A DNA stretch of 16,707 bases from a virus (taxonomy: Duplodnaviria > Heunggongvirae > Uroviricota > Caudoviricetes): the IMG/VR virus record IMGVR_UViG_2547132418_000023, one strand, 5' to 3'. The notes under the pieces were generated by a model that saw only the letters and a program-made list of their open reading frames with translations, ran no database searches and was not told the origin of the DNA. Below, piece by piece: positions 1 to 16,145 of this stretch; position 1 is the first letter of the stretch; every line of letters begins with the position of its first letter. The position numbers were made by a program, and so were the translations under genes.

Positions 1-765
1 ATGCGCGAAAGGGTATCGCAGCAGTTAAAAGAAATTGAACGGCGGTATGATGTGAAAGTATTGTACGCCTGTGAATCAGGGAGTCGCGGTTGGGGATTTG
101 CCTCGCCCGACAGCGACTACGATGTACGGTTTTTGTATGTTCACCCGCTGGAATGGTATCTGCGAGTAGAGTCACCGCGCGATGTTATCGAGCTGCCCAT
201 CGATGACGAGTTAGATGTTTCCGGTTGGGAGTGGCGTAAGGCGCTGGGATTATTGAAAGGCGCGAACCCGACGCTGATAGAATGGCTGGATTCTCCGGTG
301 GTCTATCAACAAGATGAAGAAACGATAACGGCGCTTAAGGCAATGGTCCCAACGTGGTTTTCTCCGCTGCGTGCGCGCTGGCATTACTATTCGATGGCGC
401 AGAAAAACTTCCGCGGATATTTGCAGGGCGATGAAGTTCGACTGAAAAAATACTTTTACGTGCTGCGCCCGCTGCTGGCCGTTCGTTGGGTTGAAGCGGG
501 AAAAGGTGTACCGCCAATGCGTTTTTCCGAATTGCTGGCGGGAAGTGAGTTGGATGCGGCATTACGCGCAGAAATAGATGAATTGCTGGAGCGTAAACAG
601 CGTGCGGGTGAAGCGGAATATGGACTGCGCCGTCCTTTGTTACATGCGTTTATTCGTGCGGAACTGGCGCGCGGGGAAATTCCTCCGCTGTTACCAGACA
701 GCCGGGAAGGGGACGTTAAAGAACTGGATAGTTTACTGTACCAGACGGTAATGCGCCGGGCGTGA
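1..765 (+). CDS. Nucleotidyltransferase-fold protein (Pol-beta superfamily), 254 aa; 5' end coincides with the window edge so the true start may lie upstream
   Basis: ATG at position 1, TGA at 763-765. N-terminal motif GSRGWGFASPDSDYDV fits the nucleotidyltransferase signature hG[GS]-x(9-13)-DhD. Convergent to the tail operon. Confidence 0.6.
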   Translation: MRERVSQQLKEIERRYDVKVLYACESGSRGWGFASPDSDYDVRFLYVHPLEWYLRVESPRDVIELPIDDELDVSGWEWRKALGLLKGANPTLIEWLDSPVVYQQDEETITALKAMVPTWFSPLRARWHYYSMAQKNFRGYLQGDEVRLKKYFYVLRPLLAVRWVEAGKGVPPMRFSELLAGSELDAALRAEIDELLERKQRAGEAEYGLRRPLLHAFIRAELARGEIPPLLPDSREGDVKELDSLLYQTVMRRA

Positions 766-781
766 AGCCCGGCGTTATTTT
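754..781 (+). terminator. Rho-independent terminator for the nucleotidyltransferase gene, sitting between convergent genes
   Basis: Perfect 8-bp stem CGCCGGGC (754-761) / GCCCGGCG (767-774), 5-nt loop GTGAA, followed by TTATTTT. The stop codon lies in the loop. No U-tract in the minus orientation. Confidence 0.55.
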
Positions 782-1235
782 ACGGCTGATATTGCCAGCT
801 ACTGACTAAAGCGTACAAGTGGTTTGGGGAATAGCGCCAACTCTCCTTTAATTGCAGAAATTCGGCACAAAATTCGCTGCAAAACAGGCGTTCACGCTGT
901 TCTTTATTACCGGTAATAATTCCAAGCGCGCCGCGCCAATCATATTTTTTGCCATCATGTTTATGGAAAAACGCTTCCACGTCCTGAAGGCTGGCCTGGA
1001 GCGGCAGCATATCCCACTTATCCGCTGGCAATGGCATTATCTTTCCGCGTACACCGCGATCGCGCAGTGATGCAGAGTAACAAAGGTAACTCTTTTCACC
1101 ATGCTTAACGGCTAATTCACAGTGGGAATAACTACCGCGCGTGATTTTACGGGTAAGCCAGTCAGCCAGTCGGGCAATACCACGGTGCTCTGTTCGGCCC
1201 TTATAACAAGCGAGCCAGACAGTGGTTTTACTCAT
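780..1235 (-). CDS. Putative permuted papain-like amidase (YiiX/YaeF-like, NlpC/P60 superfamily), 151 aa, translationally coupled to the upstream fibre chaperone gene
   Basis: ATG at 1233-1235 overlaps the upstream stop (ATGA). Motifs YSHCE, GKKYDW and FCSEFC resemble the His-before-Cys arrangement I recall for YiiX-family proteins. Recalled from memory, not searched. Confidence 0.4.
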   Translation of the reverse strand: MSKTTVWLACYKGRTEHRGIARLADWLTRKITRGSYSHCELAVKHGEKSYLCYSASLRDRGVRGKIMPLPADKWDMLPLQASLQDVEAFFHKHDGKKYDWRGALGIITGNKEQRERLFCSEFCAEFLQLKESWRYSPNHLYALVSSWQYQP

Positions 1236-1846
1236 GCTTGCCAGCCTGTTGAATAATCGTAGTCGAGCACCGCCTGAATATCGTCCAGAGCTTCCACCGC
1301 CGCGATATGGTGCTGGGCATTGGCGAACAGGCGCATATCGTGATCCATTGTTACCGATTCAAACTGGGCGGCGATCTCGTTGGTTAACTCGATCAGACCG
1401 TTATTTTTAGTTTTCCACATTAACCCTGGAGGGATTTTTTTCTCCGCTCCCATTTTTGTGAGTGAGAGCTGTTGGATACGGCTGTTTGTATCACTGTGGA
1501 AGTGATGGTTGTTGATGATGATGTAATCGGTTGTGACGTAATCCCGTTTGGATTTTATTCTTCTTATTATATCCGCTTTTATTTCTGAAATAAATTTAAG
1601 CATTGAATCTGTATCAACTATCCATTCTCCTTTTTTTAGTTTGTGAAATCTATCTGGTGGTGGCGTAGAGATAAAGGATAAATCTTCACAGTTAATCCAA
1701 ATTGGGATATTAGCTTTCGCATATGTCTGCCATTGCTGATCAGTTATTTCAACTAAATGTTCTACTTTAGGATAGTTGTAGTGTTCTGTATCGATCCAGT
1801 CCAGAACGATAAATGTTTCAGGATCAAAACAAGCATATTTTGTCAT
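1232..1846 (-). CDS. Putative tail fibre assembly/chaperone protein, 204 aa
   Basis: ATG at 1844-1846, immediately downstream of the fibre gene. Its 5' half shares the low GC (about 25-40%) of the fibre tip. It lacks the C-terminal EWP motif I recall for lambda/P2 Tfa, so the call is mainly positional. Confidence 0.5.
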   Translation of the reverse strand: MTKYACFDPETFIVLDWIDTEHYNYPKVEHLVEITDQQWQTYAKANIPIWINCEDLSFISTPPPDRFHKLKKGEWIVDTDSMLKFISEIKADIIRRIKSKRDYVTTDYIIINNHHFHSDTNSRIQQLSLTKMGAEKKIPPGLMWKTKNNGLIELTNEIAAQFESVTMDHDMRLFANAQHHIAAVEALDDIQAVLDYDYSTGWQA

Positions 1847-1852
1847 TTTTAA

Positions 1853-3847
1853 TTACCATGATATTTTTACGAAGCCAGAGGCACCTTTTGTTCCGCTAGT
1901 ATTGCCTAAATTTGTTAACTCATTATTTTTATATTGAAAAGGAGGTAAATAAGATCCCCCAGCTCCTCCAGAACCATAACCTGTTGCTGCTGTTGGCTTT
2001 GCCATTACTGCTTTTTTTCCACCATTACTTAGGTTTTCTGTAATAACAGTACCTGAAGCCCCTCCCTTTCCATATATAGAATTTTCACCATTCTTTCCAG
2101 GATAAAATTCTGCAGATGACGGTATTGCATTTGGTGGAGTACCTTTAGGATCGTCACTGAATTTTATATAAGGCTGCGTAGTGTTAGAGTGATAAATGTT
2201 ATATCCTCCATGGCCACCTTTTGCAGTTAGATTAGAAAACGAAGAGTCTCCACCATCAAAGCTTTTTTGTGTTGTCTCTGTTTTATCATACGAATACTTT
2301 ATTTGTGAAACAGGTGGATTGTTCCAAAAAGGACCTCCATTACCTCCAGCTCCGATCTTTACTGAAAAATGCTGGCCTGGTGCCACGTTTAAGTAATCAA
2401 CAATCAATTCTCCTGCATTACCTCCGCAGGCTTCATAATGTGATGATTGTGCTCCTCCGGCCCCCCCACCTCCGCCGCCCATAATTTCCACAAATAATAT
2501 TGTTACGCCCTCAGGAACTATAAATGTTCCATTTGTAGTATAAAAACTAGTGTGGGTATGATTAGCTGGAGCTGCAGTTTTTGCCTTATCCATTGCCGCC
2601 TTCACCGCGCTCGGTGTCGCCGCCTCCGTCGTACTGTTGCTATCCGTCGCGTTATTAAGCTTCACAATCCCTTTTTGCGACAGGGTGCCGTCTGGAACAC
2701 CCGTAATCTGTCCCCATGGGTGAGTATGGTTTCCCGCAGCCTTACTATTCGCCAGGTCATATGCCGCCTTCACCGCGCTCGGTGTCGCCGCCTCCGTCGT
2801 ACTGTTGCTATCCGTCGCGTTATTAAGCTTCACAATCCCTTTTTGCGACAGGGTGCCGTCTGGAACACCCGTAATCTGTCCCCATGGGTGAGTATGGTTT
2901 CCCGCAGCCTTACTATTCGCCAGGTCATATGCCGCCTTCACCGCGCTCGGTGTCGCCGCCTCCGTCGTACTGTTGCTATTGGTCGCGTTATTAAGTTTCA
3001 CAATCCCTTTTTGTGTCAGGGTACCGTCAGGAATACTCGTAATCTGCCCCCAGGGGTGCGTATGACTACCCGCAGCCTTACTATTCGCCAGGTCATACGC
3101 CGCCTTCACTGCGCTCGGTGTCGCCGCCTCCGTCGTACTGTTGCTGTCTGTCGCGTTATTAAGCTTCACAATCCCTTTTTGTGTCAGCGTACCATCTGGT
3201 ATATCAGTAATCTGACTCCAGGTATGACGATGATTTCGAGCCTCAATCATTGCCGCTTTCACCGCTTTTGGCGTAGCCGCTTTGGTTTCGTCATCACTGT
3301 CAGTGGCGTTACTCAACTGTGTAAAGCCTTTTTGCGTTAACGTAGCATCAGGATGATTAGTCGAACGCTCATGTTCATCCAGTTGTGAATCAACATAATC
3401 CCGTGTTGCCAGTACAATACTGGGGTCAACGGTGAGTGTTACCGCAGTCGTGTTGGAAACTTCCATAATCAGGCGAATGCAAACTTGCTTACCGCTGCCG
3501 CCGGGTAATAGTGGTTTATACGACTCCGGGAATTTACCGATAGCAATGAGTTCACCATCGGTATCAAAAACGCCGACTTCACGTACATACCAGCCGCCGA
3601 TATTTTCGGGCAGCACGAGTTCCGCAATTAACCAGTTAGGGTTATTGGGTGCAACTGTTAATGTATTTAAATCACCGCGCCATACTTCATGGCGTAATTT
3701 AGTTTGGCTGACGGTGGGTTCATAATATTGTCCTCCGCTGTCACCAACAGCCATTTTTTGTAGATGAAGCTGTTTTTTATCCGCCAGAGCATTGGCAATT
3801 TTTGCCATTCCCCTGTCGGTGAGTAGAGTATAAAACTCATTGTCCAT
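1853..3847 (-). CDS. Tail fibre protein, 664 aa: P2 gpH-like N-terminal domain, 56-aa repeat shaft, glycine-rich C-terminal tip
   Basis: ATG at 3845-3847 with GGAG 6 nt upstream. The N-terminus (EVWRGDLN, IAELVLPENIGGW, ESYKPLLPGGSG, ATRDYVDSQLDEHE, HPDATLTQKGFTQLSNATDS, ATPKAVKAA) matches my recollection of P2 gpH. Repeats of HTHPWGQIT..PDGTL.QKGIVKLNNATDSNSTTEAATPSAVKAAYDLANSKAAG follow. C-terminus carries GGGGGGAGG, GAGGNGG, GGHGG, GSGGAGGS motifs. Confidence 0.9.
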   Translation of the reverse strand: MDNEFYTLLTDRGMAKIANALADKKQLHLQKMAVGDSGGQYYEPTVSQTKLRHEVWRGDLNTLTVAPNNPNWLIAELVLPENIGGWYVREVGVFDTDGELIAIGKFPESYKPLLPGGSGKQVCIRLIMEVSNTTAVTLTVDPSIVLATRDYVDSQLDEHERSTNHPDATLTQKGFTQLSNATDSDDETKAATPKAVKAAMIEARNHRHTWSQITDIPDGTLTQKGIVKLNNATDSNSTTEAATPSAVKAAYDLANSKAAGSHTHPWGQITSIPDGTLTQKGIVKLNNATNSNSTTEAATPSAVKAAYDLANSKAAGNHTHPWGQITGVPDGTLSQKGIVKLNNATDSNSTTEAATPSAVKAAYDLANSKAAGNHTHPWGQITGVPDGTLSQKGIVKLNNATDSNSTTEAATPSAVKAAMDKAKTAAPANHTHTSFYTTNGTFIVPEGVTILFVEIMGGGGGGAGGAQSSHYEACGGNAGELIVDYLNVAPGQHFSVKIGAGGNGGPFWNNPPVSQIKYSYDKTETTQKSFDGGDSSFSNLTAKGGHGGYNIYHSNTTQPYIKFSDDPKGTPPNAIPSSAEFYPGKNGENSIYGKGGASGTVITENLSNGGKKAVMAKPTAATGYGSGGAGGSYLPPFQYKNNELTNLGNTSGTKGASGFVKISW
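2594..3265. repeat. Tandem 168-bp direct repeats (4 copies, units starting 2594, 2762, 2930, 3098; degenerate 5th about 3251-3340) inside the fibre gene
   Basis: TGCCGCCTTCACCGCGCTCGGTGTCGCCGCCTCCGTCGTACTGTTGC recurs at an exact 168-bp period. Copies 1 and 2 are nearly identical, later copies progressively diverged. In-frame, encoding 56-aa repeats. Confidence 0.85.
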
Positions 3848-3849
3848 AA

Positions 3850-4482
3850 TTACTCCGGGTAAATAGATGTAATTTCAAGGCTCCATTGCCCTGTTCCGTA
3901 ATAAATCGATGTGTTGTGCTGTACTTCCCGTATCTGGAAAGGTAAAACCGTCGTCAGTTCACCACCATAAAGTGCACAGCCAATAACAGGAATAGCACTT
4001 TGGTTAATGATCCAGACGATTAATGCTTCCAGTTTTGAACGTGTGTTTTTATATTCATGAATGAGTTCTACCAAATCATTGAAAAGGTTTTCATCCAGGC
4101 CTTTATCCACCAGCGCTATATCCACCTTAAAAAAATAAGCCCTTCCCCCATATTCAAACCATTCTGAAATAGTTCCTGGTAATGAGAGTATTTCCAGCAC
4201 CCGCCGCACCGCCCAAATTGTTCCTTTATATTTATGCAGTTCAATGGCTTGTTTAATTAACTCGCGTTTCTCCCGCTCATCGGTGGTAAATAACCAACCT
4301 TCCAGCCCCTGAACGTGAAATTGTTCTGCAAGGGCTGGTAATGCCGAAGCATCAACCTGGTCGATCAGATAAACCATCAACGCCGTCAGATCGAGTTGGG
4401 CAAAACGCTCGGCGGCGATATTTGCCAGAATCGAAAAACGCTCATCGCTGGCAAGCGGCGGCGGTGGCAGCAATTTATCCAT
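3850..4482 (-). CDS. Baseplate/tail protein, P2 gpI-like, about 210 aa
   Basis: The ORF-track start at 4497 is TTG; in-frame ATG at 4480-4482 (MDKLLPPPP...) overlaps the gpJ stop by 8 nt. Positioned between gpJ and the fibre as in P2 J-I-H. Confidence 0.7.
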   Translation of the reverse strand: MDKLLPPPPLASDERFSILANIAAERFAQLDLTALMVYLIDQVDASALPALAEQFHVQGLEGWLFTTDEREKRELIKQAIELHKYKGTIWAVRRVLEILSLPGTISEWFEYGGRAYFFKVDIALVDKGLDENLFNDLVELIHEYKNTRSKLEALIVWIINQSAIPVIGCALYGGELTTVLPFQIREVQHNTSIYYGTGQWSLEITSIYPE

Positions 4483-5590
4483 CGCTGACTCCGGCAATCG
4501 TGACGTCTATTGCGGTGCATTCCGCCCACTCATGCGCCTGCAAAATACGTTTTGTAGGCATATTCAGCGCAACGTCATAGACGCCATCGACCTGTAACAC
4601 TTTGATTATCTGGTTTGGCACAATGTCCTGCCCCAGATGTTTCTGCCGCTGTTGCGTCCAGAGGCTAATCGCTTTACGCGCTGCAGCCAGCGTTGTCTCC
4701 TGATCGGCGGTGGTAAACAGCGTTAGCTGCGCACGGATCTCATATGGCACTCGAAGAGCGCATTTCGCACTCACTTTGTCGGTCAGCGGACGTTTTTTCT
4801 CCTTGCTAACCTCCTGTTCAATTTGCGCGAGCAGTTCTATTCCCGGCAGTCCGTTCAGAGTTAGCGGGTAGATCTCCACGCAGCCTTCTGGCAATCCCTC
4901 GTCCGGCCCCAGTACTGCAACGTCAATAATCGACTGGCTAACAGAAAGCGTATGAAAGCGGTAGGCACCATAGCTGCCCGCATTACTAAAGCTTTCTGGT
5001 GCCAGTTGGATACGCTGGCGCAATGCGTCATCGCTCTCTTCACCGCAGCCGCCCGTTGACGCAGTCAGGTTGGTTACGTTGATGTCATAATGACCAATCC
5101 TGTCGACCAGTGCGCTAATTTGTGCAGGCTGCCAGCCGTTACCCTGTTCACCTGCTGCGAGGCTGGTGGCAGGAACGGCGATATGCAAACTCCTGGCCGG
5201 AAGCAGAACATCTTCATCGGTGGCGAACATCACGCTATCAGAGGCACTGGCCCGCGTTCCCTGGGGAATCAGGATATTGCTGGTATACGCGCTGACGACC
5301 GAAAACTGCAACGTCGTTTTTGCCGGCTGCGCAGGCAAACGGTGAACGCCCACCAACTCCCCTAAATAATCCAGCATTGGCGCGCGGGAATACGCGACCA
5401 GGTTCTGTTTCGCCGCTTCCTGAATGGCGATGCGTACAAGGTTTTCACGATAGGCAAACAGGTCGATGAGCAACCGCTCAGCCTGTGCCGGATAGAGTTT
5501 TTTACCGCTGGCATCTTCGTATTGCGCAATCATCTCACTGGTAATTTGCGCAGGATCGCGGTCAATAAAATTGGGTTCGGCTATCGCCAT
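4475..5590 (-). CDS. Baseplate J-like protein (P2 gpJ / T4 gp6 family), 371 aa
   Basis: ATG at 5588-5590 with GGAGGGG Shine-Dalgarno. Size and position after the gpW-like gene; start overlaps the gpW stop by 10 nt. Confidence 0.8.
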   Translation of the reverse strand: MAIAEPNFIDRDPAQITSEMIAQYEDASGKKLYPAQAERLLIDLFAYRENLVRIAIQEAAKQNLVAYSRAPMLDYLGELVGVHRLPAQPAKTTLQFSVVSAYTSNILIPQGTRASASDSVMFATDEDVLLPARSLHIAVPATSLAAGEQGNGWQPAQISALVDRIGHYDINVTNLTASTGGCGEESDDALRQRIQLAPESFSNAGSYGAYRFHTLSVSQSIIDVAVLGPDEGLPEGCVEIYPLTLNGLPGIELLAQIEQEVSKEKKRPLTDKVSAKCALRVPYEIRAQLTLFTTADQETTLAAARKAISLWTQQRQKHLGQDIVPNQIIKVLQVDGVYDVALNMPTKRILQAHEWAECTAIDVTIAGVSDG

Positions 5591-5940
5591 AACCCCTCCG
5601 TTGAGTTGATAACGCCGTCAGCGGCGCGCCATTGCACACGTAACGTCAGATGTTCGCCGTCGATTACTGGTGTCACCTTCAGCAACCGACAGCGCGGCTC
5701 CCACTGGCGGATGGCTTCCACCGACTCCCGTACCACATGCGGAATTGCCCGCTCGATGGGGTAATCGATGTAGTGCCACAAGTTGCTGCCAAACAGCGGT
5801 CTGTGGGGATCACTGCCGCGCGGTGTGCGCAGAATGATGTGTATTGCCTGGTGAATATCATCCAGTCCGCAGACGTATTCTTCAGGCCGCTGCAAGGCCG
5901 GTTGCCAGTGCAGCGTTGAGGGTCGTGTTTTTGTGTTCAT
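5581..5940 (-). CDS. Baseplate wedge protein, gpW / T4 gp25 family, 119 aa
   Basis: ATG at 5938-5940. Motifs DDIHQAIHIILRTPRGS and IRQWEPRCRLLKVT align with P2 gpW (ILRTPVGS, LKWEPRV) as I recall it. Confidence 0.85.
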   Translation of the reverse strand: MNTKTRPSTLHWQPALQRPEEYVCGLDDIHQAIHIILRTPRGSDPHRPLFGSNLWHYIDYPIERAIPHVVRESVEAIRQWEPRCRLLKVTPVIDGEHLTLRVQWRAADGVINSTEGLWR

Positions 5941-5999
5941 GAGGGTATTTTCGCCCTGAACGGGCTGTGGCGATATTAAAGCGATTTAGAAAACTGATT

Positions 6000-6033
6000 G
6001 ATTAAAAAGAGAAAACCCGCCATCAGGCGGGTT
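6000..6033 (-). terminator. Intrinsic terminator inside the tail operon, between the spike and gpW genes
   Basis: Perfect 8-bp stem AACCCGCC (6014-6021) / GGCGGGTT (6026-6033), loop ATCA. In mRNA sense it is followed by UUUUCUCUUUUUAAU, just downstream of the spike stop. Confidence 0.55.
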
Positions 6034-6038
6034 AAACG

Positions 6039-6740
6039 TCAGTGTGTATGGTGGTTGGAGTTGCCACCGCTGTCCTGCAATGCGCCGCTGGCCTGAACGT
6101 TGCCGATCACGTTGACATTGCCAGTTATCGTGGCGGCGTTACCGATGCCTCCACTTCCTGCCATCCCGCCAAGCCAGGTGAGTTTTTTCATTACCGTGAC
6201 ATTGCCAGTAAAGGTGCTCATGGGCGCATCTACCGTCACTGCTGCCGCTTTAACATCGACCTTAGTGGCGTCGATGCTGACATCGGTCGCTTTAATATCG
6301 ACGGTATCGGAAGTCACGGTGACCTGTTGGGCTTTAATCTCAACGTTGGGTGATGTCAGGCGGGTACTGTCGATAACCTCAATCACGATTTTCTCGATAC
6401 CGCCGTTAATCGTCAGCTGGTGGGTGCTGCGGTCATATTCAAACGCTGCGCCATCAGAAAACTGGACGTAACGTTTATCGCGCGAGGCCACAGGCGCGGT
6501 GTCAACCGTAGAATAAACTGCGCCCAGCACCACGCCATCTTCACCGTTATTGTCCAGCAGAACTTCCACTTGCTCGCCCATATCCGGTAGCCAGTAGTCT
6601 TTATTGTCCTGGGAATTGCGTTGAAGTACCGCAAGCCAGTTGCTCTTCAGATTGTCACACTCCGGAAGCGTGACTCGCACCCGAACGCTGGTTTCGTCAA
6701 TATCGCTGATAATCCCCGTTTGACGGGTTACTCCTTTCAT
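6039..6740 (-). CDS. Baseplate central spike, P2 gpV-like, 233 aa
   Basis: ATG at 6738-6740 with AAGGAGG Shine-Dalgarno. N-terminal OB-like region, then beta-helix-like repeats (VTVTSDTVDIKATDVSIDATKVDVKAAAVTVDA). C-terminus ends NSNHHTH, an HxH apex motif of the kind that binds metal in P2-type spikes. Confidence 0.8.
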   Translation of the reverse strand: MKGVTRQTGIISDIDETSVRVRVTLPECDNLKSNWLAVLQRNSQDNKDYWLPDMGEQVEVLLDNNGEDGVVLGAVYSTVDTAPVASRDKRYVQFSDGAAFEYDRSTHQLTINGGIEKIVIEVIDSTRLTSPNVEIKAQQVTVTSDTVDIKATDVSIDATKVDVKAAAVTVDAPMSTFTGNVTVMKKLTWLGGMAGSGGIGNAATITGNVNVIGNVQASGALQDSGGNSNHHTH

Positions 6741-6749
6741 ATTTCCTCC

Positions 6750-7790
6750 TTACTGGCTGGTCGCTGGCCCGCGTGACACGTCGATTTCAGTGGTATAGCC
6801 GCTGCGCACAAAACTGTGAGTCGATTTATCAATCAGCCACTGACCGGAAAGCACGCCAAAATCGGTCAGTTCAATTTTATTGCCCGCCGTCAGTTCCGGG
6901 CAGCCCATCATCCTGAGCGTTCCGGTTTGTTGATATTCGTTGTGGCTGTCGAGCGCGGCGTTGGCCTTTGCCTGTGCCGCGCCAACGTCCGGCGCCCGAC
7001 TGTTCAGTTTTAGCGTGTCGGCACTGGTGCCGACTCCACGGGCAGACGGTTTTTGCTGGCTGTCGTGGGTGTAGATAACCAGTTCTTTTTTCTTACTATT
7101 TTGATGCTGTACGGTGGCATTTTTGTAGATACGGTTAATGGTATCTTTGAAGGTGAAATGCGAAACGTCTTTGCGGTCGATCGTTTTTACCGGCGCCAGG
7201 CAGCGCAGCGTGGGTAAATGCGAAAAAATCAGTTCTTTGGTGGTCACCTTTACCGCATAGCCATATTCGCTGGCCAGGCGCTTGAGAAATCCGACATCGG
7301 TTTCACCATACTGCGTTACCCGGTCGATGGTGAGCGGCTCGATTTTGCCCACCAGTTTCAGACCGTGCGTTTGGGCGATACGGCTGGCGATAGCCGAAAG
7401 CGTCGTTTCTTCAAAGCCCTGGCTGTTACGGGTACGCAGCGCCTGATTGACGGAAGTGGCGATGCCATCAATATTTACCGTAGAAGGTGGCGCTGAAATA
7501 TCAATTTTATCAATAATATACTGACCACAATCGAGCAGCTTTTCCCCCTGATAACCCATATGCAGCGCCAGCGTATCGCCTTTGCCGGGATACCACTCTT
7601 TTATCCAGCGTCCATCGGTGTCATCCAGTGTAATCGCGATGGTATCTGACTCGTTTTTGATGCTGTCGTGGTAACTGATGCTGGTGACATAGGGTGTGAT
7701 GTCATAAGTGATATCTTTATGCCCATACCAGAGGGTAAAAATGGGCGTGAGTGTGGCAAAGACGCCACCAGTTACGCTTATCTCAGCCAT
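6750..7790 (-). CDS. Baseplate hub, P2 gpD-like (late control gene D family), 346 aa
   Basis: ATG at 7788-7790. Sits upstream of the spike and after gpX as in the T-U-X-D block. The C-terminal region (TGTLRMMGCPELTAGNKIELTDFGVLSGQWLIDKSTHSF) resembles gpD. Confidence 0.8.
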   Translation of the reverse strand: MAEISVTGGVFATLTPIFTLWYGHKDITYDITPYVTSISYHDSIKNESDTIAITLDDTDGRWIKEWYPGKGDTLALHMGYQGEKLLDCGQYIIDKIDISAPPSTVNIDGIATSVNQALRTRNSQGFEETTLSAIASRIAQTHGLKLVGKIEPLTIDRVTQYGETDVGFLKRLASEYGYAVKVTTKELIFSHLPTLRCLAPVKTIDRKDVSHFTFKDTINRIYKNATVQHQNSKKKELVIYTHDSQQKPSARGVGTSADTLKLNSRAPDVGAAQAKANAALDSHNEYQQTGTLRMMGCPELTAGNKIELTDFGVLSGQWLIDKSTHSFVRSGYTTEIDVSRGPATSQ

Positions 7791-7987
7791 GGTGGGATCT
7801 CCGATAAGGTTTTATTGACGGAAATGACCGGAATAATGAGCTGAATACCGGAAGGCAGTACCGGGTAAATGGCGACATGTGGATTGGCGACGATTATGCG
7901 TTCATAAGCCAGCGCATCACCGTAGTAATGCCATGCCAGATTATCCCAGCGTTCGCCGTCGGTGGTGATATGTTCAAGGTATCGCAT
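7778..7987 (-). CDS. Tail protein X (P2 gpX-like, LysM-like), about 69 aa
   Basis: The ORF-track start at 7990 is GTG; ATG at 7985-7987 overlaps the upstream stop (TGATG). Motif WDNLAWHYYGD...ANPHV...LPSGIQLIIP resembles P2 gpX. Confidence 0.75.
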   Translation of the reverse strand: MRYLEHITTDGERWDNLAWHYYGDALAYERIIVANPHVAIYPVLPSGIQLIIPVISVNKTLSEIPPWLR

Positions 7988-8940
7988 CACCAGATCCTCG
8001 TAATGGTCGCGGCAGCAAGCTGGCTCACTGTGGGAGTGGTTTGTTGTACCGTTGTTCGTGCCTGATCAACCAACGTTGCGGCTTTATCAAACGTCGCTTC
8101 GGCGATGTCGCTGGTAATGTCGTCGAAAAGCGCCTGAGCATGGTCAACCAGTGTACTGGCGTCATTGGCGCAGTCCCGGATACCTGGCATGTTACCCAGT
8201 AAAGTTTTAATCTGCGCCGACAACGCTTTTGGGAGTCCTGCCAGCGTTTGCAGATCCATTGGCTGTTTAAACAGGGTTTCGATGGCGTCGATTGTCTTTT
8301 TCAATGACGTAATTATCTTTTCACACTTTTCTTTTAACACTTTGGCCTCTTTAATCATTGCTTTCACTTTTGCCACCGTTTTTTTAATATCTTCAATGGC
8401 TTGTGTCAGTTCATCCAGCATCTCTTTGGCCTTACGCATACCTTCTTCGATGGCGTTTAATATCTGATCAAACCAGGACTCCACCATGTCGGGAAAATCG
8501 CTCGCCTTTTCCTCAATGTTAGGCTCCTGGGTGGTAATCGCCGGAGGTAAAAGTGGATTTTTAGGATCGCCGGTGTACTCCTGGAGCGACATCGTTCCGT
8601 TTTGGGCAATCACATTGCCCCAGGGATCGGTGTGCTGGTGGGTGGCGGTTAGCTCCGTAATTACAAACCAGCCGCGATAATCGCCATTGCCAAATACCAG
8701 TGCCATCGCCTTGTGAGCAAGCATGGCTTCACGCAGTCGATTAAGCTCTGTTGTGGGCTGGCAAAACTGGCTGTGCAGGGAAAATTCCAGCGCCAGCATA
8801 TCCAGCTTATCGCCAATAAACTGCACACCGGGTTTGCCTTCTATACGGGCATGTGTGGCGTAATCCACGCCCATTGTGCTTTTAAAGCCGTCCCAGAATG
8901 CGACAACCTTAAATTCAATCTCTCCTAAAACGGCATACAT
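7987..8940 (-). CDS. gpU-like tail protein with a roughly 165-aa helical C-terminal extension, 317 aa
   Basis: ATG at 8938-8940 overlaps the tape-measure stop (TGATG). N-terminal GDYRGWFVITELTATHQHTDPWGNV resembles P2 gpU (GWFVITSISRQH). The C-terminal half is K/E/A-rich and heptad-like (EEGMRKAKEMLDELTQAIEDIKKTVAKVKAMIKEAKVLKEK). Confidence 0.7.
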   Translation of the reverse strand: MYAVLGEIEFKVVAFWDGFKSTMGVDYATHARIEGKPGVQFIGDKLDMLALEFSLHSQFCQPTTELNRLREAMLAHKAMALVFGNGDYRGWFVITELTATHQHTDPWGNVIAQNGTMSLQEYTGDPKNPLLPPAITTQEPNIEEKASDFPDMVESWFDQILNAIEEGMRKAKEMLDELTQAIEDIKKTVAKVKAMIKEAKVLKEKCEKIITSLKKTIDAIETLFKQPMDLQTLAGLPKALSAQIKTLLGNMPGIRDCANDASTLVDHAQALFDDITSDIAEATFDKAATLVDQARTTVQQTTPTVSQLAAATITRIW

Positions 8941-11315
8941 CAGGCATACCCCCGGCGCTGTTGTTGCGCCATTACGTCGTTAATCATTCTTTCAAGTTCG
9001 CGTTTACTCATCGTCAACACGTTCTGAATCTCTTTAGTGGTGTTTTGTCCGTTACCCTGCACGGTAATCTGTGGCGAAAAATTCACCTGAACTTTTCCAG
9101 AGGAACGGGAAGGTAGCGTCGCCGGTTTGGTTACGGATTTACCAGGTAAAGAGGCCAATGCGGGTTTGGCGGCTGTATTTTTTGCCGCAGGTGCCGATGG
9201 CGGCGTTGTCGTTTTACTGGATGGCGCGAGTTGTTTCCCCACCGGAGGCGTTAAAATCGCACCGGCAACGCCTGGAACAACGCTCGCGGGGGAGACGGAT
9301 GCGGTATTAGTCGTGCTTGTAATAGCTGTAGCCGATCCTTCTGTACTAATACCCATCGTGGTTTTTAGCCAGTCTGGGATGACGTTTTTGACCTGATCAA
9401 TAATGCCTTTCAGAGCGGGGAAGGCATTCATTATGCCGTCGGCCAGGCTAGCCAGAAGATTGCTGCCGAACTCGCTAAAACTCGCAGGCATTTCAACACC
9501 AAACCAATTCATCACACTGGAAAAGGCGCTATAGAACAACTCCAGCGGCGACCAGTCGAGAATTAACCGACAAATTTCTGCAATGCCGCCGTCAAAGGCC
9601 GTGGTGATACGTTGCCAGATGGTAGAAAAGAACCTGGAGATAGGCTCCCAGTTGCGATAAATCAGATAAGCAGCGCCCGCAATCGCAGTGATGACCAGAC
9701 CAATGGGATTCATCAATAAAACCCTACCCAACCAGAAGACGGTCTGACCTGCCTGTTTCAGTGCGCCAATCAGGCCACGACCAAGCAGTTGCGTTAGCCA
9801 TTTTGCACCGCCACCCAATGACTTAACCGCTGATAGCATCTTACTTGCCCCGCCTGTGAGTGCCAGACTTGCCCTGACTTTCAGGAAGATATCGACCAGA
9901 CGAATAAACGGCGAGGCGATGAAGTTCGCGCCCAGTTTTAAAACATTCAGCGCGCCGTTAAACAGCCAAATCGCCCCGACGATTTTCGCAATGTTTTGCA
10001 CCAGTGCCGGGTGCTCACGTAGCCAGGCGCTGAACTGGCGAACAACCGGCGTAAGGCTTTGTGCCAGCTCGCCAATCAGCGGCATTAATTGCAAGCCAAT
10101 GCTGAGCCATAAATCATTTAACGCCAGCTGTAACGCTTTAGTCTGTTCAATGGGCGAGGCCATTTGCGCAGAAAAGTCGGCATCAATCAGATTCTTGCTG
10201 CTGGCTTGCATGGCAGAGGCTTTTAACTGGCGATATTCCTCCATATTCGCCAGCATAGGTGCCAGGAATTCCACAGTTTGCGCATCGCCGAACATTTCGC
10301 CCAGATTAAATTGCGTCACCATCGATTGCAGCGCATTGCTGCGAGCAGATAAATCTTCAATCTGCATAGTGCGTTTGAAGGTGCCGAGGATCGCCGGATT
10401 CATCTTCTCAAGCTGCATTTGCACGATATGAGTCATGGCTTCGCTAACACCCATACCGTTTTGCTGATGCTCAAGCAGAGAGCCTTGCAGATCAACGCCC
10501 TGGCTGGCGAACCAGTTATCGGTTTTTTTCGAAAAGGTGGTTTGCAGAAAGTGGTCGAAATTCTCCGCCGCCGCACTGGCGCTGGCCCCGTTTTTCATGG
10601 CGATCTGCATGATGGCGGTCAGTTCAGCCATACCTTCCAGACCCTGAGCGCCGGTTTTACCTGCAAATTTCTCTATCCACTGCGTTTGTTCGGCAACGGC
10701 AGGCCCACCGCTTTTGCTAATGCCATACATCATGTTTTGCGTGGCGTGGAAATTTTCCGGGGCAATATTCAATCGATCATGAGTCGCGAGCGCGGCATTC
10801 GCCCACGTTTCAGCACTTTCGCGCGTGGCGGTGGCAGCTTTGGCGATCTCCGGCATATAACGGTTGAGATCCTGCATCGACGACAAATTGCCTTCGATCA
10901 GCGTTTGGGCTGCGTTCTGTAAGGTGGTCTGCTGCTGGTTAAAATCCATGCTCCAGTCGCGCAGATTAAGGCTGAGCGTCTCGCGGGTTGTAGCATTCAT
11001 CCCACCTTTGGTCGCCATATTGACCATGTTGTCCTGGAACTCATATGGCAACTTCCAGTCGGGGGCTTCAACATTGAATACCTTGCTAAATTGCCCGGCA
11101 AATGTTTGGGTTTTCTCCATTAGATCAGCGCGGTTCCGGCTATTTTCCTCCAGGCGGAGAGCAGAATCGGCAAGTTGCTGCGTTAGTTTGATTACTGTCG
11201 CTTGCTGAGAAGAGAGAGCTAACAAAGTTCTGGCGTTGAGTGAGCCGTAACGGGCTATTGCCTGCGTCAACGTCTCATTACGCGCCTGAAGCTGGGTAAT
11301 AATATCGTTGGCCAA
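8940..11315 (-). CDS. Tail tape measure protein, 791 aa
   Basis: Long, mostly alpha-helical, hydrophobic central segments, Pro/Ala/Ser/Thr-rich stretch near the C-terminus, located after the chaperone gene. Start is TTG at 11313-11315 (in-frame stop at 11328-11330, no nearby ATG), preceded by AAAGAGAAA. Confidence 0.8.
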   Translation of the reverse strand: MANDIITQLQARNETLTQAIARYGSLNARTLLALSSQQATVIKLTQQLADSALRLEENSRNRADLMEKTQTFAGQFSKVFNVEAPDWKLPYEFQDNMVNMATKGGMNATTRETLSLNLRDWSMDFNQQQTTLQNAAQTLIEGNLSSMQDLNRYMPEIAKAATATRESAETWANAALATHDRLNIAPENFHATQNMMYGISKSGGPAVAEQTQWIEKFAGKTGAQGLEGMAELTAIMQIAMKNGASASAAAENFDHFLQTTFSKKTDNWFASQGVDLQGSLLEHQQNGMGVSEAMTHIVQMQLEKMNPAILGTFKRTMQIEDLSARSNALQSMVTQFNLGEMFGDAQTVEFLAPMLANMEEYRQLKASAMQASSKNLIDADFSAQMASPIEQTKALQLALNDLWLSIGLQLMPLIGELAQSLTPVVRQFSAWLREHPALVQNIAKIVGAIWLFNGALNVLKLGANFIASPFIRLVDIFLKVRASLALTGGASKMLSAVKSLGGGAKWLTQLLGRGLIGALKQAGQTVFWLGRVLLMNPIGLVITAIAGAAYLIYRNWEPISRFFSTIWQRITTAFDGGIAEICRLILDWSPLELFYSAFSSVMNWFGVEMPASFSEFGSNLLASLADGIMNAFPALKGIIDQVKNVIPDWLKTTMGISTEGSATAITSTTNTASVSPASVVPGVAGAILTPPVGKQLAPSSKTTTPPSAPAAKNTAAKPALASLPGKSVTKPATLPSRSSGKVQVNFSPQITVQGNGQNTTKEIQNVLTMSKRELERMINDVMAQQQRRGYA

Positions 11316-11416
11316 AATTGTTTCTCTTTAATTATTGATAATGGCCCACTGGTTATTTTTCTAAAAAAGGGGCTGGGAAGAAATAAACCTGGCGGGCTTT
11401 GAAGAACTCGCAGACA

Positions 11417-11822
11417 TCAGGTCTGGGAGCCATATTCGATCTTTATTTGGTCGCTGGCTTCATCCAGCCAGTTGCTAAAGTCATCTATGGTGAGCGCGTC
11501 TATCTCACTGGGTGGAAAGCGAAACCATCTCGCCAGTAGCGCCATTGCCTGCCATAGCTGGGGAGGATTCTGTAACCACGGTAAGCATGGATTGAAATCG
11601 TTTCTGCAATGCCTGGTAATCCAGCAAATCCATTTCAGCTAAATCTTCTGGCACCAGTCCGGTCATCGCCGCCATTAGCGGTTCATCCCACTCTTCGGGT
11701 TTTTCGCTGATCCGGCGCGCGTTGCGCATATCTTTTACTTTCAGGCGACGTAATTGCAGCGAGTCGATAGTATTTCCTGCTGCCGACGTAAATGGGAACT
11801 GTAAGATATAATGCTCTTTCAT
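11417..11822 (-). CDS. Putative frameshift-extended chaperone (E+E'-like) produced by a +1/-2 shift near the 3' end of the chaperone gene
   Basis: The +1 frame is open from 11638 to a TGA at 11417-11419 and encodes protein-like sequence past the chaperone stop (...WFRFPPSEIDALTIDDFSNWLDEASDQIKIEYGSQT). The -1 frame stops after 8 codons. Slip site not identified. Confidence 0.4.
11505..11822 (-). CDS. Tail assembly chaperone (P2 gpE-like), 105 aa
   Basis: ATG at 11820-11822 with AAGGA Shine-Dalgarno. Position between tube and tape measure. DLAEMDLLDYQALQKRF resembles the gpE family. Confidence 0.75.
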   Translation of the reverse strand: MKEHYILQFPFTSAAGNTIDSLQLRRLKVKDMRNARRISEKPEEWDEPLMAAMTGLVPEDLAEMDLLDYQALQKRFQSMLTVVTESSPAMAGNGATGEMVSLSTQ

Positions 11823-11848
11823 TTTGTATCCTTATTTATGTTGCGAAG

Positions 11849-11868
11849 TTCGGGGCCGTAGCCCCGAA
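11849..11868 (-). other. Intergenic RNA stem-loop between tube and chaperone genes, no U-tract
   Basis: Perfect 8-bp inverted repeat TTCGGGGC (11849-11856) / GCCCCGAA (11861-11868), loop CGTA, in the 47-nt tube-chaperone gap. Confidence 0.5.
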
Positions 11869-11872
11869 TAAT

Positions 11873-12397
11873 TTAGCCACCGATGTTATTGCGATAGGTA
11901 CTTAATTGATCCACGCCGTTAACCCGAAAAATATTCGCCATATAATCAAGTTCAAGCAGCGTTTCACCATCGACCACTTGTTTAATATAAGTACAACCAA
12001 AGGCGCTGCTGAATTCCGGGTTTTCATTCTGTTTAAATGTGCCCAAGGGATTCTTTTTAAACATCACGGTTAAATGTGTCACTAACGCTAATTGATTCGC
12101 TTTCCCCTGGGAGTTATAGCAATCAATACTGGAGCGGCACTGTAATGCTACTGCCTGCCACGGGTTTGCCGTTTTACGCATTACGTCCTGATAAAAGGAG
12201 TTCCATTTAATTTCCCCCTCCAGTTTATCGAAACCAGCCGGGAGTTCGATTTTACCGACCATACCCAGTGCTTTATGCTCTTGCATAATTAAACTGACAT
12301 CCGGCAATTTAATTTCGGTTGCACGACCTAAAAGATTATTACCATCGAGATAAATATTGGCGTTGGTAATACGGTTAATTTGAATTTTTCCAGCCAT
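11873..12397 (-). CDS. Tail tube protein (P2 FII-like), 174 aa
   Basis: ATG at 12395-12397 overlaps the sheath stop (TAATG). C-terminus CTYIKQVVDGETLLELDYMANIFRVNGVDQLSTYRNNIGG closely matches P2 FII as I recall it. Confidence 0.85.
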   Translation of the reverse strand: MAGKIQINRITNANIYLDGNNLLGRATEIKLPDVSLIMQEHKALGMVGKIELPAGFDKLEGEIKWNSFYQDVMRKTANPWQAVALQCRSSIDCYNSQGKANQLALVTHLTVMFKKNPLGTFKQNENPEFSSAFGCTYIKQVVDGETLLELDYMANIFRVNGVDQLSTYRNNIGG

Positions 12398-13821
12398 TAG
12401 CTATTGCTCTCCAGAGAGACTAAATATTCAGAAGTAATTTCAGTTTCAAACGTCAGACGTTCCAGCGGCGGCGGCGGGGTGAATTTATAGCTAAGCAATA
12501 AATGCCCGGCGCTGAGTTCAGCCGGTGAATTTCGCGCCGGATCGTACCAGCACTCAAAGCCAAGCAGTGCGCCGTCGGCAATCAGTTTTCGGCCCCAGGT
12601 ATTTACCGATTCGGTCAGCGCGTCAATAAGAGCCTGATTAATCGGCATATCAATATACTGCTGACTGAAATAACGGATTGACTCATTAATTACATCGCCT
12701 GTCCGGCGAACGTTTTCAAAGTTACGCATATGGGTCACGGTAGGCCATGCCGCTGTGCGGTTGCCCCACAAGCGCAGACCAGAACCGTAACTATTGAAAA
12801 TAGTGGTAATGCCGTTTTCGTTGAGCTGATTCACTTCGCTTTGTGGATCATCAATCATTGCAGAAAGCGAACGTTCAATACCGGTAATACCCTGAATTTC
12901 CTGGTTTGAGTTGCTCCACCAGAAACCTTTTTCGAGGTCTACTTTGGCACGTAGCCCGGCAGCGCGCGAAGAGAGTGGTTCGAGAACTTCCTGGTTAGTG
13001 ATGCCATCGTAAACTTTGACGTGTGGGTAACATAAACGCACACGATCAGAGCTGGTATTGAAGTTGATAGCCCCTTGCGAACCGCGTCCAGCCAATACCT
13101 GCTGGAATGTCGTCCCAATCGGAGCATCAATGTAGGTAAGCGCACCGAGTTTTTCCGCTTGTGCAATCAGCTCAGTAGTTACTGATTTTTGCGTACAAAA
13201 CACGGGAGCAAGCAGGATTTTGGCGTAGAAACCGTACAGGTTATAGGTGTCCTGAAGGAGTTTCATCCCCGTGCGGTCGCCTGCGGTATTTACGGCACCG
13301 ATAATATCGGCTGCGGTGACCTTTGTAGGGTCGCACCAGGAATAATAGGCGCAAACTTTCGCACCAGGAGGAATGTCGGCTCCTTTACGGGTAATTATGC
13401 CTGTTTGTTCATCTACGCTAAATGCTGCGGTGTTAAAGGTTGATGAATTTGATGAAGAGGGCTTTAGTACCACGTTACGCACATTGCGGTGAGCGAGCTT
13501 CGCCTGGTTGTTAGCGTCAAAAGTGATACTCTCATTGCTGATGTTGGAGCCATGTTTTGCCGGATCCAGCACGTTAATCACCACCACCGTACCGGCACCG
13601 TGGTCATAAATCGCCTTCAGTGCCTGTGGGATCGTAAAGTTAGCCTGAGTCGAGCCAAACTGCGCAGCATCGCTTTCAGAAAGGCATAATGTTGGTTTAT
13701 TTACCGGACCGCAGGGGGCCGTACCGATTAAAGCGATGACGGCGGATTTTACCGCTTTAACCGGACGCGGGCCGGTTTCAATTTCAATGGTTTCTACACC
13801 GTGCAGGTAATTAGCTGCCAT
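12397..13821 (-). CDS. Tail sheath protein (P2 FI-like), about 474 aa
   Basis: The ORF-track start at 13827 is TTG; ATG at 13819-13821 is preceded by GAGGA. C-terminal region (LRLWGNRTAAWP..., ECWYDP..., LSYKFTPPPPLERLTFE) matches sheath proteins. Confidence 0.9.
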   Translation of the reverse strand: MAANYLHGVETIEIETGPRPVKAVKSAVIALIGTAPCGPVNKPTLCLSESDAAQFGSTQANFTIPQALKAIYDHGAGTVVVINVLDPAKHGSNISNESITFDANNQAKLAHRNVRNVVLKPSSSNSSTFNTAAFSVDEQTGIITRKGADIPPGAKVCAYYSWCDPTKVTAADIIGAVNTAGDRTGMKLLQDTYNLYGFYAKILLAPVFCTQKSVTTELIAQAEKLGALTYIDAPIGTTFQQVLAGRGSQGAINFNTSSDRVRLCYPHVKVYDGITNQEVLEPLSSRAAGLRAKVDLEKGFWWSNSNQEIQGITGIERSLSAMIDDPQSEVNQLNENGITTIFNSYGSGLRLWGNRTAAWPTVTHMRNFENVRRTGDVINESIRYFSQQYIDMPINQALIDALTESVNTWGRKLIADGALLGFECWYDPARNSPAELSAGHLLLSYKFTPPPPLERLTFETEITSEYLVSLESNS

Positions 13822-14008
13822 GTACAATTTCCTCTACGTTATTTTGTTCTTCCTGAGTGATGACAGGAGTCAGATGATTGCGGGCAATCATGGTCATGAC
13901 CCACTCGTTGTCTTCTGGCAGATCAATTTCACTGTTCGGCCACAATAAGATTTCTTGTCCATCGGCAAGGGTGACGCCGCTTGCCGGGCCGTTGTAGATG
14001 TATTTCAT
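13811..14008 (-). CDS. Small conserved tail-module protein (Mu gp38-like), 65 aa
   Basis: ATG at 14006-14008 overlaps the upstream stop (ATGA). Position directly before the sheath, as in Mu-like phages. Family assignment from memory. Confidence 0.4.
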   Translation of the reverse strand: MKYIYNGPASGVTLADGQEILLWPNSEIDLPEDNEWVMTMIARNHLTPVITQEEQNNVEEIVHGS

Positions 14009-14460
14009 TCAGTTTCCTCGTAGTTAACTTCCGTAAGCAGGGGAAGATCCGTGCTTTCCTGTTCAGCGATAAACAGCGAGCTGGTCGCCATTTCCAGGAT
14101 GTAGCGGCAGAAACCGCCGCTCTCACCCGTATTAATTTCTTTTTCAAGCCAAAGCAGACGATCGCAATCAGGAAGCTGAAGGCCGCCCAATGCGCTGCGT
14201 ATGCAATCAAGTGCGTTTAACGCGTCACAATTTTTGTCAACAATAACGGTGGCGGTTAAGCGGAGTATTTGCTGTTGCACGATGGCATCACTGCTTTCGG
14301 GTGTGGTAAAGACAGAACCGCTATAATTAATAATCACTGCAACTTGTTGTGTCTGTGGAATATATTTCTGGGCATCCGTAGATGAAATAAATATATCCAT
14401 TTCAGGATGCCGATCACGTAATTTGACCATGACATAATTCATTGCAGATAAAATTTTCAT
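14005..14460 (-). CDS. Putative tail completion/terminator protein (Mu gp37-like), 151 aa
   Basis: ATG at 14458-14460. First gene of the tail operon after the terminator. VAVIINYSGSVF-type motif. Family assignment from memory. Confidence 0.45.
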   Translation of the reverse strand: MKILSAMNYVMVKLRDRHPEMDIFISSTDAQKYIPQTQQVAVIINYSGSVFTTPESSDAIVQQQILRLTATVIVDKNCDALNALDCIRSALGGLQLPDCDRLLWLEKEINTGESGGFCRYILEMATSSLFIAEQESTDLPLLTEVNYEETE

Positions 14461-14564
14461 ATGAGGTGTACCTTAATTACCGCTCACTTCGTTATCGTTG
14501 AGATGTATTATGAAGCAGTGAAGGTGAAGAATCTTTTAATGTGATTTAGAGAAAAAATTGAATG

Positions 14565-14601
14565 GCTATAAAAAATCCCCACACTTACGTAAAGGTGGGG
14601 A
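14565..14601 (-). terminator. Intrinsic terminator separating the lysis cassette from the tail operon
   Basis: 7-bp stem TCCCCAC (14576-14582) / GTGGGGA (14595-14601) with a partly self-complementary loop. In mRNA sense followed by UUUUUUAUAGCC, just after the 14607 stop. Confidence 0.5.
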
Positions 14602-14606
14602 TGTAT

Positions 14607-14921: not shown

Positions 14922-14933
14922 CGGCCCCTCTGA

Positions 14934-15539: not shown

Positions 15540-15541
15540 CA

Positions 15542-16125: not shown

Positions 16126-16145
16126 TACTGTATGTGCATACAGTA
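16126..16145. promoter_or_regulatory. LexA (SOS) box
   Basis: TACTGTATGTGCATACAGTA is a 20-bp palindrome with CTGT-N8-ACAG, one mismatch from the E. coli recA operator as I recall it (TACTGTATGAGCATACAGTA). It lies in the divergent control region. Confidence 0.7.

Follow-up and report, generated by a model that had tools for sequence, protein, structure and literature searches.

A tail-fibre gene of an Escherichia coli contractile-tail cluster with predicted shaft modules that differ in number by whole 168-bp units

A tandem repeat within a gene for a phage tail protein raises two questions, namely what the repeated segment contributes to the protein and whether the number of copies changes. 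The stretch of DNA analysed here (16,707 nucleotides in all, called the window below) carries such a repeat, with a period of 168 bp. The repeats are read from the minus strand, which corrects an earlier account of them, and they lie in frame within a single long open reading frame that we identify as a tail-fibre gene (Table 1). By exact look-up, the encoded protein is identical to WP_003582617.1 / END49049.1 of E. coli MP020980.1. An open reading frame of 262 aa on the plus strand (2552-3340) was also considered as a gene and was rejected: it is wholly antisense to the repeats, and the strong family matches fall in the minus-strand frame.

The architecture of the protein is that of an ordinary fibre. 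The match to the tail-collar family PF12571 is full-length (profile positions 1-150 of 150), the central region matches PF03406 in five stretches (E 5.6e-89; 291.9 bits against a cut-off of 22), and PF21722 is found in the C-terminal domain (41.2 bits against a cut-off of 24.3). PHROGs likewise assigns the gene to tail-fibre families. Residues 431-664 were modelled confidently by AF2 as a monomer, and in Foldseek the C-terminal model matches the Pam3 fibre (7ypx, E 7e-8), the Bxb1 tail tip, and the glycine-rich domain of ALK/LTK. Because PF12571, five copies of PF03406 and PF21722 occur together in a gene immediately preceded by the baseplate genes J and I, the proposal of the first-pass annotation that the 168-bp repeats encode modules of a fibre shaft is supported.

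The wider locus indicates what kind of particle the fibre would serve. The cluster of E. coli S10 begins with a Mor activator next to lysC and ends with the fibre genes, after which host genes follow; the annotation shows no head genes between lysC and rluF. An R-type tailocin locus is defined by a fixed chromosomal site at which a regulator and lysis genes accompany a complete tail module, with capsid, packaging, replication and integration genes all absent, and the S10 locus fits this definition. Judged by its genes, the cluster to which the fibre belongs is chromosomal and specifies a headless contractile tail of the P2/Mu type. The DUF4376 gene next to it is kept beside the fibre gene in all loci examined. 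Scanned with PADLOC, the flanking genes for a nucleotidyltransferase, a 151-aa protein and the DUF4376 protein gave no meaningful match.

Table 1. Features of the tail-fibre locus, in window coordinates
Feature	Position	Strand	Basis or remark
Tail-fibre gene, 664 aa	1853..3847	-	ORF list, translation, Pfam, PHROGs, exact look-up
N-terminal tail-collar (baseplate-attachment) domain, aa 1-150	3398..3847	-	PF12571, E 7.3e-61
Module U1, aa 166-216	3200..3352	-	Divergent 51-aa PF03406 repeat; HRH at aa 206-208 (window 3224-3232)
Module U2, aa 217-272	3032..3199	-	56 aa; HTH at aa 262-264 (window 3056-3064)
Module U3, aa 273-328	2864..3031	-	HTH at aa 318-320 (window 2888-2896)
Module U4, aa 329-384	2696..2863	-	HTH at aa 374-376 (window 2720-2728)
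Module U5, aa 385-440	2528..2695	-	Last module, linker different; HTH at aa 430-432 (window 2552-2560)
Perfect 168-nt periodicity, 386 nt	2594..2979	-	218-nt exact match at offset 168; footprint of the extra unit
C-terminal glycine-rich domain, aa 437-663, presumed receptor-binding tip	1859..2539	-	PF21722, AF2 model, Foldseek
DUF4376 protein, 204 aa, immediately downstream; presumed fibre-assembly or fibre-associated	1232..1846	-	PF14301, PHROG tail families
Baseplate wedge gene I	3850-4497	-	PF09684 (Tail_P2_I); directly upstream of the fibre gene
Baseplate wedge gene J	4475-5590	-	PF04865 (Baseplate_J); upstream of I

The tandem repeat itself is genuine, as Tandem Repeats Finder places it at 2594-3214 with a period of 168, 3.7 copies, 93% matches and a score of 1046. 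How many units there are depends on the level at which they are counted. A repeat search of the window gives four in-register copies of DNA (starts at 2552, 2720, 2888 and 3056), and four had been the count in the first-pass annotation, but at the protein level the modules number five, which is also the Pfam count, and they extend over about 2528-3352 rather than 2594-3265. The string HTHPWGQIT, which had been attributed to each unit, is exact in U2-U4, but U1 reads HRHTWSQIT and U5 reads HTHTSFYTT. Two of the copies had further been described as nearly identical. This is accurate for U3 and U4, which share 96% identity in module register (the other pairs share 76-90%), yet it understates the likeness, given the exact match of 218 nt at an offset of 168. 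A duplication junction can be placed anywhere within the resulting tract of perfect periodicity, and no finer. Between U2 and U3 the differences are mostly synonymous, with 11 synonymous and 4 non-synonymous codons.

Does the number of units differ between isolates? Expansion and contraction of the repeat had been predicted from the near-identity of its copies, and the prediction is borne out in substance, for genes that are otherwise identical differ by whole units. The window gene and the E. coli S10 gene are separated by 0 substitutions and by one exact 168-bp unit, which the window gene has in excess. The E. coli allele was found in 39 complete genomes, in every one of which (39/39) it has four units and a length of 1827 bp, and is otherwise base-for-base the window gene; this four-unit allele is without one unit's worth of U3/U4. 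At the other extreme, a three-unit protein (P0002), present on 16 contigs, aligns to the window protein with 0 substitutions and a 112-aa gap. At the DNA level its junctions lie in at least three different places (L004, L005/L006 and L007); L005 comes from a k=95 assembly, against a junction tract of only 29 nt. Homologues as a whole form three length classes (552, 608 and 664 aa), corresponding to three, four and five units, with the spacing of 51, 56, 56 and so on retained. In Salmonella most alleles have three units, and both three-unit and rare four-unit alleles occur there.

The five-unit form itself deserves separate scrutiny, because a single contig of a single draft assembly (GCA_000358145.2) is the sole source of the 664-aa protein, whereas the 608-aa form is found on at least 1000 contigs. 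Perhaps the strain truly carries four units, and the assembler passed twice round a loop created by the exact repeat of 50 nt on either side of one unit. A perfect extra unit bounded by such a repeat is what a mis-traversed loop in an assembly graph would be expected to produce; the inserted copy is indeed perfect, with no private substitution, and the uniform length of the same allele in complete genomes also fits. When metagenome and species-representative genome collections were scanned for the flank-gap-flank pattern, no second five-unit occurrence was recovered, but the four-unit control, which covered the metagenome collection, matched there just once, so that the negative from that collection weighs little. 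On the other side, assemblers collapse tandem repeats more often than they expand them, and the contig in question is long (256 kb) and, over the fibre gene, otherwise identical to finished genomes. Moreover, true whole-unit changes are known independently of this contig, both from the three junctions of the three-unit form and from the Salmonella alleles with three and four units. An assembly error at the fifth unit is a serious possibility, though in our judgement an unlikely one.

Whole units are gained and lost, but the change is rare. The locus is not hypervariable, and the number of units is fixed within most lineages, as the invariance of the complete E. coli genomes and the occurrence of one Salmonella three-unit protein in 13,741 blocks of a sequence collection make clear. 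This bears on the idea that the repeat is a contingency locus, in which frequent switching of copy number within a strain would vary the length of the fibre or turn it on and off. The exact match of 218 nt within the tandem repeat of the window allele is what might lead one to suspect such a locus. But a unit of 168 bp is 56 codons, so that the frame is never shifted; four units are present in each complete genome with the allele, and three in thousands of Salmonella assemblies; and the units of the common alleles have diverged from one another by synonymous changes. Frequent switching is thus very improbable, and phase variation was rejected outright, the unit being a multiple of three and copy number being fixed within lineages. 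Because of the same fixity, an adaptive role in which unit number is 'tuned' is speculative.

The degree of identity between units tracks the stability of each allele. In the stable three-unit allele of Salmonella, the units are 70% identical and the longest exact run is 22 nt. Exact tracts between units measure 29-50 nt in the four-unit allele of E. coli and 218 nt in the window allele, and in the rare four-unit allele of Salmonella two units are 94% identical. Long exact tracts between in-frame 168-bp units would provide substrates for unequal homologous recombination or for replication slippage, and either process could add or remove whole modules while leaving the rest of the protein undisturbed. 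The window allele is the four-unit allele common in E. coli with one such unit added, and its 218-nt exact repeat should make it the least stable of the alleles seen.

The second striking regularity of the modules is a His-x-His motif. It is present in all five, at aa 206, 262, 318, 374 and 430, and so at an exact spacing of 56 aa; with 18 His in 664 aa, only 0.49 occurrences would be expected by chance. The linker that follows each repeat has the consensus AP-x-x-H-T-H-x-W-x-Q-I. Across 15 aligned relatives the motif is kept in every module, except for the last module of one protein with a different tip. In a broader set of 150 diverse representatives, H-x-H occurs in 58 of the 60 intervals that measure 56 aa and in none of the 102 that measure 44 aa, and the offset of the motif is the same in 100 of 118 cases. 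H-x-H marks a distinct 56-aa subtype of the PF03406 repeat and is absent from the 44-aa subtype.

Could these pairs of histidines bind metal? The first-pass annotation had drawn an analogy with iron-coordinating H-x-H motifs in T4-type fibre tips, and the precedent it named is correct. The needle of T4 gp37 has seven such motifs, each of which coordinates Fe2+ along the trimeric fibre (PMC6116203, PMC8174754), and the fibre described here similarly has several, for which metal is suggested by analogy. The gp37 motifs belong to the receptor-binding tip, a six-stranded beta needle in which the chain doubles back, whereas those here would be linkers between helix-containing repeats of the proximal and middle shaft, and no homology was detected between the two. 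A closer precedent is the R1/R2 pyocin fibre (PA0620), where the H-x-H lies in the shaft rather than the tip and builds an octahedral site, buried on the trimer axis, in which six His coordinate Fe; a role in keeping the three chains in register and in adjusting stiffness has been proposed for this site (PMC6116203). Six-His iron sites formed from H-x-H are on record for trimeric fibres, in the R1/R2 pyocin shaft, T4 gp37 and P2 gpV (PMC6116203, PMC8174754). Like the pyocin protein, the fibre described here is assigned, from gene content, to a headless contractile tail and has H-x-H in the shaft. It differs in having five regularly spaced motifs where the pyocin shaft has one, in having a glycine-rich domain rather than a lectin fold at the tip, and in showing no detectable sequence similarity.

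With these precedents, metal sites at the H-x-H pairs are plausible. The tail fibre would be a homotrimer, and the repeats would supply the five modules of its shaft. Each module consists of a PF03406 repeat (predicted short strands and one helix) and then the conserved H-T-H linker. In each module, three copies of H-x-H would place six imidazoles around the three-fold axis, where they could clamp one metal ion, most likely iron, so that a fibre might hold five metal sites, one per module.

Alternatively, the H-T-H-x-W linker might be a metal-free structural element, such as a collar of His/Trp packing or hydrogen bonds, or a pH-sensitive hinge. The neighbouring Thr, Trp and Ile are as conserved as both His residues, which suggests a packing motif, and the last module of one allele (L002) does without H-x-H, which shows that not every position requires the motif. 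Nor is there detected homology to the solved metal-binding fibres: phmmer and profile searches of all PDB chains, with the whole protein, two modules and a 40-sequence profile of diverse units as queries, found no homology to any solved H-x-H fibre and matched only Mu gpS, in which no H-x-H follows the repeat. In the AF2 monomer model, built on a 15-sequence alignment, aa 1-430 have pLDDT below 50, and this part is uninformative on the fold of the module and the geometry of the histidines. What argues against a metal-free linker is that the solved trimeric fibres and spikes with an axial H-x-H cited in PMC6116203 all hold metal there, namely T4 gp37, the R1/R2 pyocin fibre, P2 gpV, the phi92 spike and T4 gp12, and that the motif is strictly tied to the 56-aa subtype and strictly missing from the 44-aa one, which points to a self-contained functional insert. 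We lean away from the metal-free linker, which is possible but has the smaller claim. A trimeric shaft of metal-clamped modules, gained or lost whole by recombination or slippage in a P2/Mu-type tail cluster, is the reading that we consider probable.

How does this fibre relate to known relatives? PF03406 (Pf2) proteins include lambda Stf, StfR of E. coli K-12, Mu gpS and prophage fibres of enterohaemorrhagic E. coli, with which the repeats share the signature T-x-K-G-I-V-Q-L ... S-T-S-E-T-x-A-A-T-P-K-A-V-K. The unit is present in 283 phage records, and a profile of diverse units matches residues 111-151 of Mu gpS (E 4e-15). The single Mu gpS repeat has no H-T-H-x-W linker, whereas every repeat here is of the 56-aa subtype that carries it, and the N-terminus is of the P2 tail-collar type, not that of lambda Stf. 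Our literature search on the structure of PF03406 or on an H-x-H subtype found nothing specific. The structure of Pf2 has been called little known (PMC3368898), and the cryo-EM paper on Mu models the N-terminus alone of the fibre, with no residue numbers given. Variation by whole periods has a parallel in the collagen-like prophage fibres EPclA-D of E. coli O157, some of which carry Pf2 and whose shafts differ in length between copies and strains (PMC3368898). Their periods are multiples of 3 aa in collagen and 7 aa in coiled coil (PMC3368898); the variable element is Gly-X-Y or a heptad there, but a 56-aa module from 168 bp here. Modular fibres that are built of repeats and vary in length by whole periods are already established, and so are iron sites formed by H-x-H in fibres.

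The split of PF03406 into a 44-aa form without H-x-H and a 56-aa form with it is a small but useful point of annotation for fibre engineering and structure prediction. In addition, genes with three, four and five modules and otherwise identical sequence make up a natural series in which the influence of shaft length on target recognition by contractile tails could be tested, and the same series could be used to test H-x-H pairs as metal clamps that register the three chains. A bolder proposal, which we regard as doubtful, is that the 56-aa unit is a self-contained, metal-clamped trimerisation cassette with its own axial iron site, and that whole cassettes are gained or lost such that the reach of the fibre and the strains killed would change with the tip untouched. 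If it were true, a fixed tailocin of E. coli or Salmonella could shift its reach across, for example, O-antigen or capsule layers of differing thickness.

The array of 168-bp units is a strong tandem repeat by Tandem Repeats Finder (3.7 copies, 93% matches, score 1046), and four in-register copies were placed by the repeat finder at starts of 2552, 2720, 2888 and 3056. The first-pass annotation had described four copies in a fibre gene, each carrying HTHPWGQIT. The repeat itself is confirmed, but its coding strand is the minus strand, the protein holds five modules (U1 to U5, from N to C terminus) rather than four, and the exact string is present in three of them, the other two carrying variants. 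A His-x-His closes each of the five at a spacing of exactly 56 residues, where chance would give 0.49 such motifs in a protein with 18 His among 664 residues. U3 and U4 are 96% identical as DNA in module register, and sequences 168 nt apart match exactly over 218 nt, which produces 386 nt of perfect periodicity; older module pairs are 76-90% identical and differ mainly synonymously (11 synonymous and 4 non-synonymous codon differences between U2 and U3). An open reading frame of 262 aa with a GTG start lies wholly antisense to the array; as a candidate gene it was set aside, being most likely a by-product of repetitive, stop-poor sequence.

Features of the window (nucleotide positions) and of the fibre protein (residues)
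Feature	Window	Strand	Residues	Remarks
RlaP-type nucleotidyltransferase	1-765	+		PF10127
151-aa protein	780-1235	-		
Fibre gene	1853-3847	-	1-664	
Tail-collar fibre N-terminal domain			1-150	PF12571, full-length, E 7e-61
Phage tail fibre repeats, five				PF03406, E 6e-89
U1			166-216	51 aa, divergent; HRH at 206
U2			217-272	HTH at 262
U3			273-328	HTH at 318
U4			329-384	HTH at 374
U5			385-440	HTH at 430
C-terminal glycine-rich domain	1859-2539		437-663	PF21722, above curated cut-off
Tandem array	2594-3214			period 168
Perfect periodicity	2594-2979			
Antisense open reading frame	2552-3340	+		
Tape measure	8940-11315			
Tube	11873-12397			
Sheath	12397-13827			
Gp37	14005-14460			
Lipoprotein	14607-14921			
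SLT lysozyme / lytic transglycosylase	14934-15617			
Holin	15542-15829			
Mor activator	16366-16707	+		

Comparison of related alleles indicates that the number of modules varies, and by whole modules, in line with the earlier suggestion of variable fibre length. The window gene differs from that of E. coli S10 by no substitutions and one exact 168-bp insertion; the 1827-bp four-module form occurs in 39 complete E. coli genomes, and at least 1000 contigs encode its protein. A three-module protein of 552 aa (P0002), found on 16 contigs, lacks 112 aa of the window protein and otherwise has the identical sequence. When its DNA is set against the four-module gene, the deletions fall at three distinct junctions: one within a 29-nt identity tract (contigs L005 and L006), one within a 35-nt tract (L007) and a third elsewhere, accompanied by a small mosaic (L004). 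At least three independent events are thus implied. Among these contigs is one assembled with k=95, for which collapse through 29 nt of identity is unlikely. Among more distant alleles, the size classes of 552, 608 and 664 aa correspond to three, four and five modules with conserved spacing, and the gaps in their alignment are clean ones of 56 and 112 aa.

The five-module form is known from a single contig of one draft assembly (GCA_000358145.2), APZN01000154.1, to which the window corresponds, and its exact 664-aa protein is in public databases as 'phage tail fiber repeat family protein' of E. coli MP020980.1 (WP_003582617.1 / END49049.1). Conceivably, the fifth module is an artefact of a wrongly traversed loop in the assembly graph, an error that would equally yield a perfect additional unit with a 50-nt exact repeat at its borders; we consider this rather unlikely. 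A second five-module occurrence was found neither in species-representative genomes nor in JGI metagenome contigs, the latter scan having little power because the four-module control matched there just once. Even if the five-module form were set aside, variation in module number would stand as a general conclusion.

Both His residues are kept in every module of 15 aligned relatives, save the last module of one protein with a different tip; the last His-x-His is also absent from one further E. coli allele (L002). The shaft was searched against 1.84 billion representative proteins, and in the best 150 matches, a sample of 648 PF03406 repeats biased towards relatives of the query, His-x-His occurred in none of 102 repeats at 44-aa spacing and in 58 of 60 at 56-aa spacing. 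Its offset was constant in 100 of 118 cases, at five residues past the 40-aa core, and units of 56 aa have the consensus KGivqLss.TnStSeTlAATPkAVKAAyDlAagkAP.sHTHpW.qItgvP. The motif thus marks a 12-residue insert separating a subtype of the known PF03406 repeat.

Metal binding had been proposed for these motifs from the start. In the solved shaft of the R1/R2 pyocin fibre, H-x-H motifs from three chains form a six-His octahedral iron site, and the same type of site is found in the solved T4 gp37 needle and P2 gpV spike, with proposed roles in chain registration and stiffness (PMC6116203); H-x-H counts are commonly used to infer iron sites in fibres (PMC11705849). By this analogy we lean slightly towards metal binding by the present fibre. 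Sequence searches found no similarity to any solved H-x-H fibre, and in the PDB the repeat has a sole relative, Mu gpS, whose single copy is without His-x-His, unlike the five motif-bearing modules here. In the monomer AF2 model the shaft is unusable (pLDDT <50 for residues 1-430).

The fibre tip was modelled with high confidence (pLDDT 80-96 in most 10-residue blocks), and its structural matches by Foldseek include the fibre of cyanophage Pam3 (7ypx, E 7e-8), a tail-tip protein of mycobacteriophage Bxb1 and, from the human receptors ALK/LTK, the glycine-rich domain that binds ligand. Alleles occupying the same chromosomal site share the N-terminal domain and modules and carry clearly different glycine-rich tips (positions 3001-4770 of locus L002 and 3001-4746 of L003; proteins P0010, P0014 and P0057), the switch point falling directly after the last module, in what looks like tip swapping by recombination.

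Judged by its gene content, the window from 780 to 16707 is a headless contractile-tail gene cluster with a tailocin-like organisation. The tape measure gene is followed by U/X/D/V/W/J/I; the baseplate genes J and I lie upstream of the fibre gene, and downstream is a DUF4376 gene that accompanies it in every related locus examined; all PHROGs families matching the fibre protein are tail-fibre families. In E. coli S10 the cluster lies between lysC and yjbD/rluF and has no capsid, terminase/packaging, replication or integrase genes; among 5426 complete E. coli genomes, 47 carry it. Thousands of Salmonella assemblies contain related fibre genes directly flanked by these same genes (baseplate J and I, DUF4376 and the 151-aa gene), in what may be the STM4200 region. 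The 151-aa protein, encoded after the DUF4376 gene and conserved in every related locus, has no Pfam match; it matches the first half of phrog_1128 (E 4e-58), labelled 'enoyl-CoA hydratase/carnithine racemase-like'. The RlaP-type gene, matched by none of the PADLOC defence models, always borders the cluster at its fibre end and lies on the opposite strand, as does, in related loci, a slipin/Band-7 gene whose place would be past the low end of the window.

Prior work has established the repeat family, the tail-collar architecture and H-x-H iron sites, and the shafts of collagen-like prophage fibres vary by whole repeat periods (PMC3368898). We found no description of a 56-aa H-x-H subtype of PF03406, nor of a natural three-, four- and five-module series at this locus.

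Changes in module number are rare. All complete genomes carrying the window-type allele (39/39) have four modules, as do other E. coli alleles at the site, and Salmonella alleles are overwhelmingly three-module, one exact protein being indexed in 13,741 blocks of the collection. With a unit of 56 codons the frame is never shifted, and a phase-variable switch is very unlikely. DNA identity between units varies greatly among alleles and tracks their stability, or the frequency of copy-number variants. The units of the very stable three-module Salmonella allele (L011) are 70% identical and share no exact run longer than 22 nt, the four-module E. coli allele (L001) has exact tracts of 29-50 nt, a rare four-module Salmonella allele (L012) has two units 94% identical, and the window allele has its 218-nt tract. 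Shen and Huang reportedly found in 1986 that a perfectly identical stretch of about 23-27 bp is required for RecA-dependent recombination in E. coli. The pattern is as predicted if whole modules were gained and lost by unequal homologous exchange or slippage between units, which we infer to be the mechanism.
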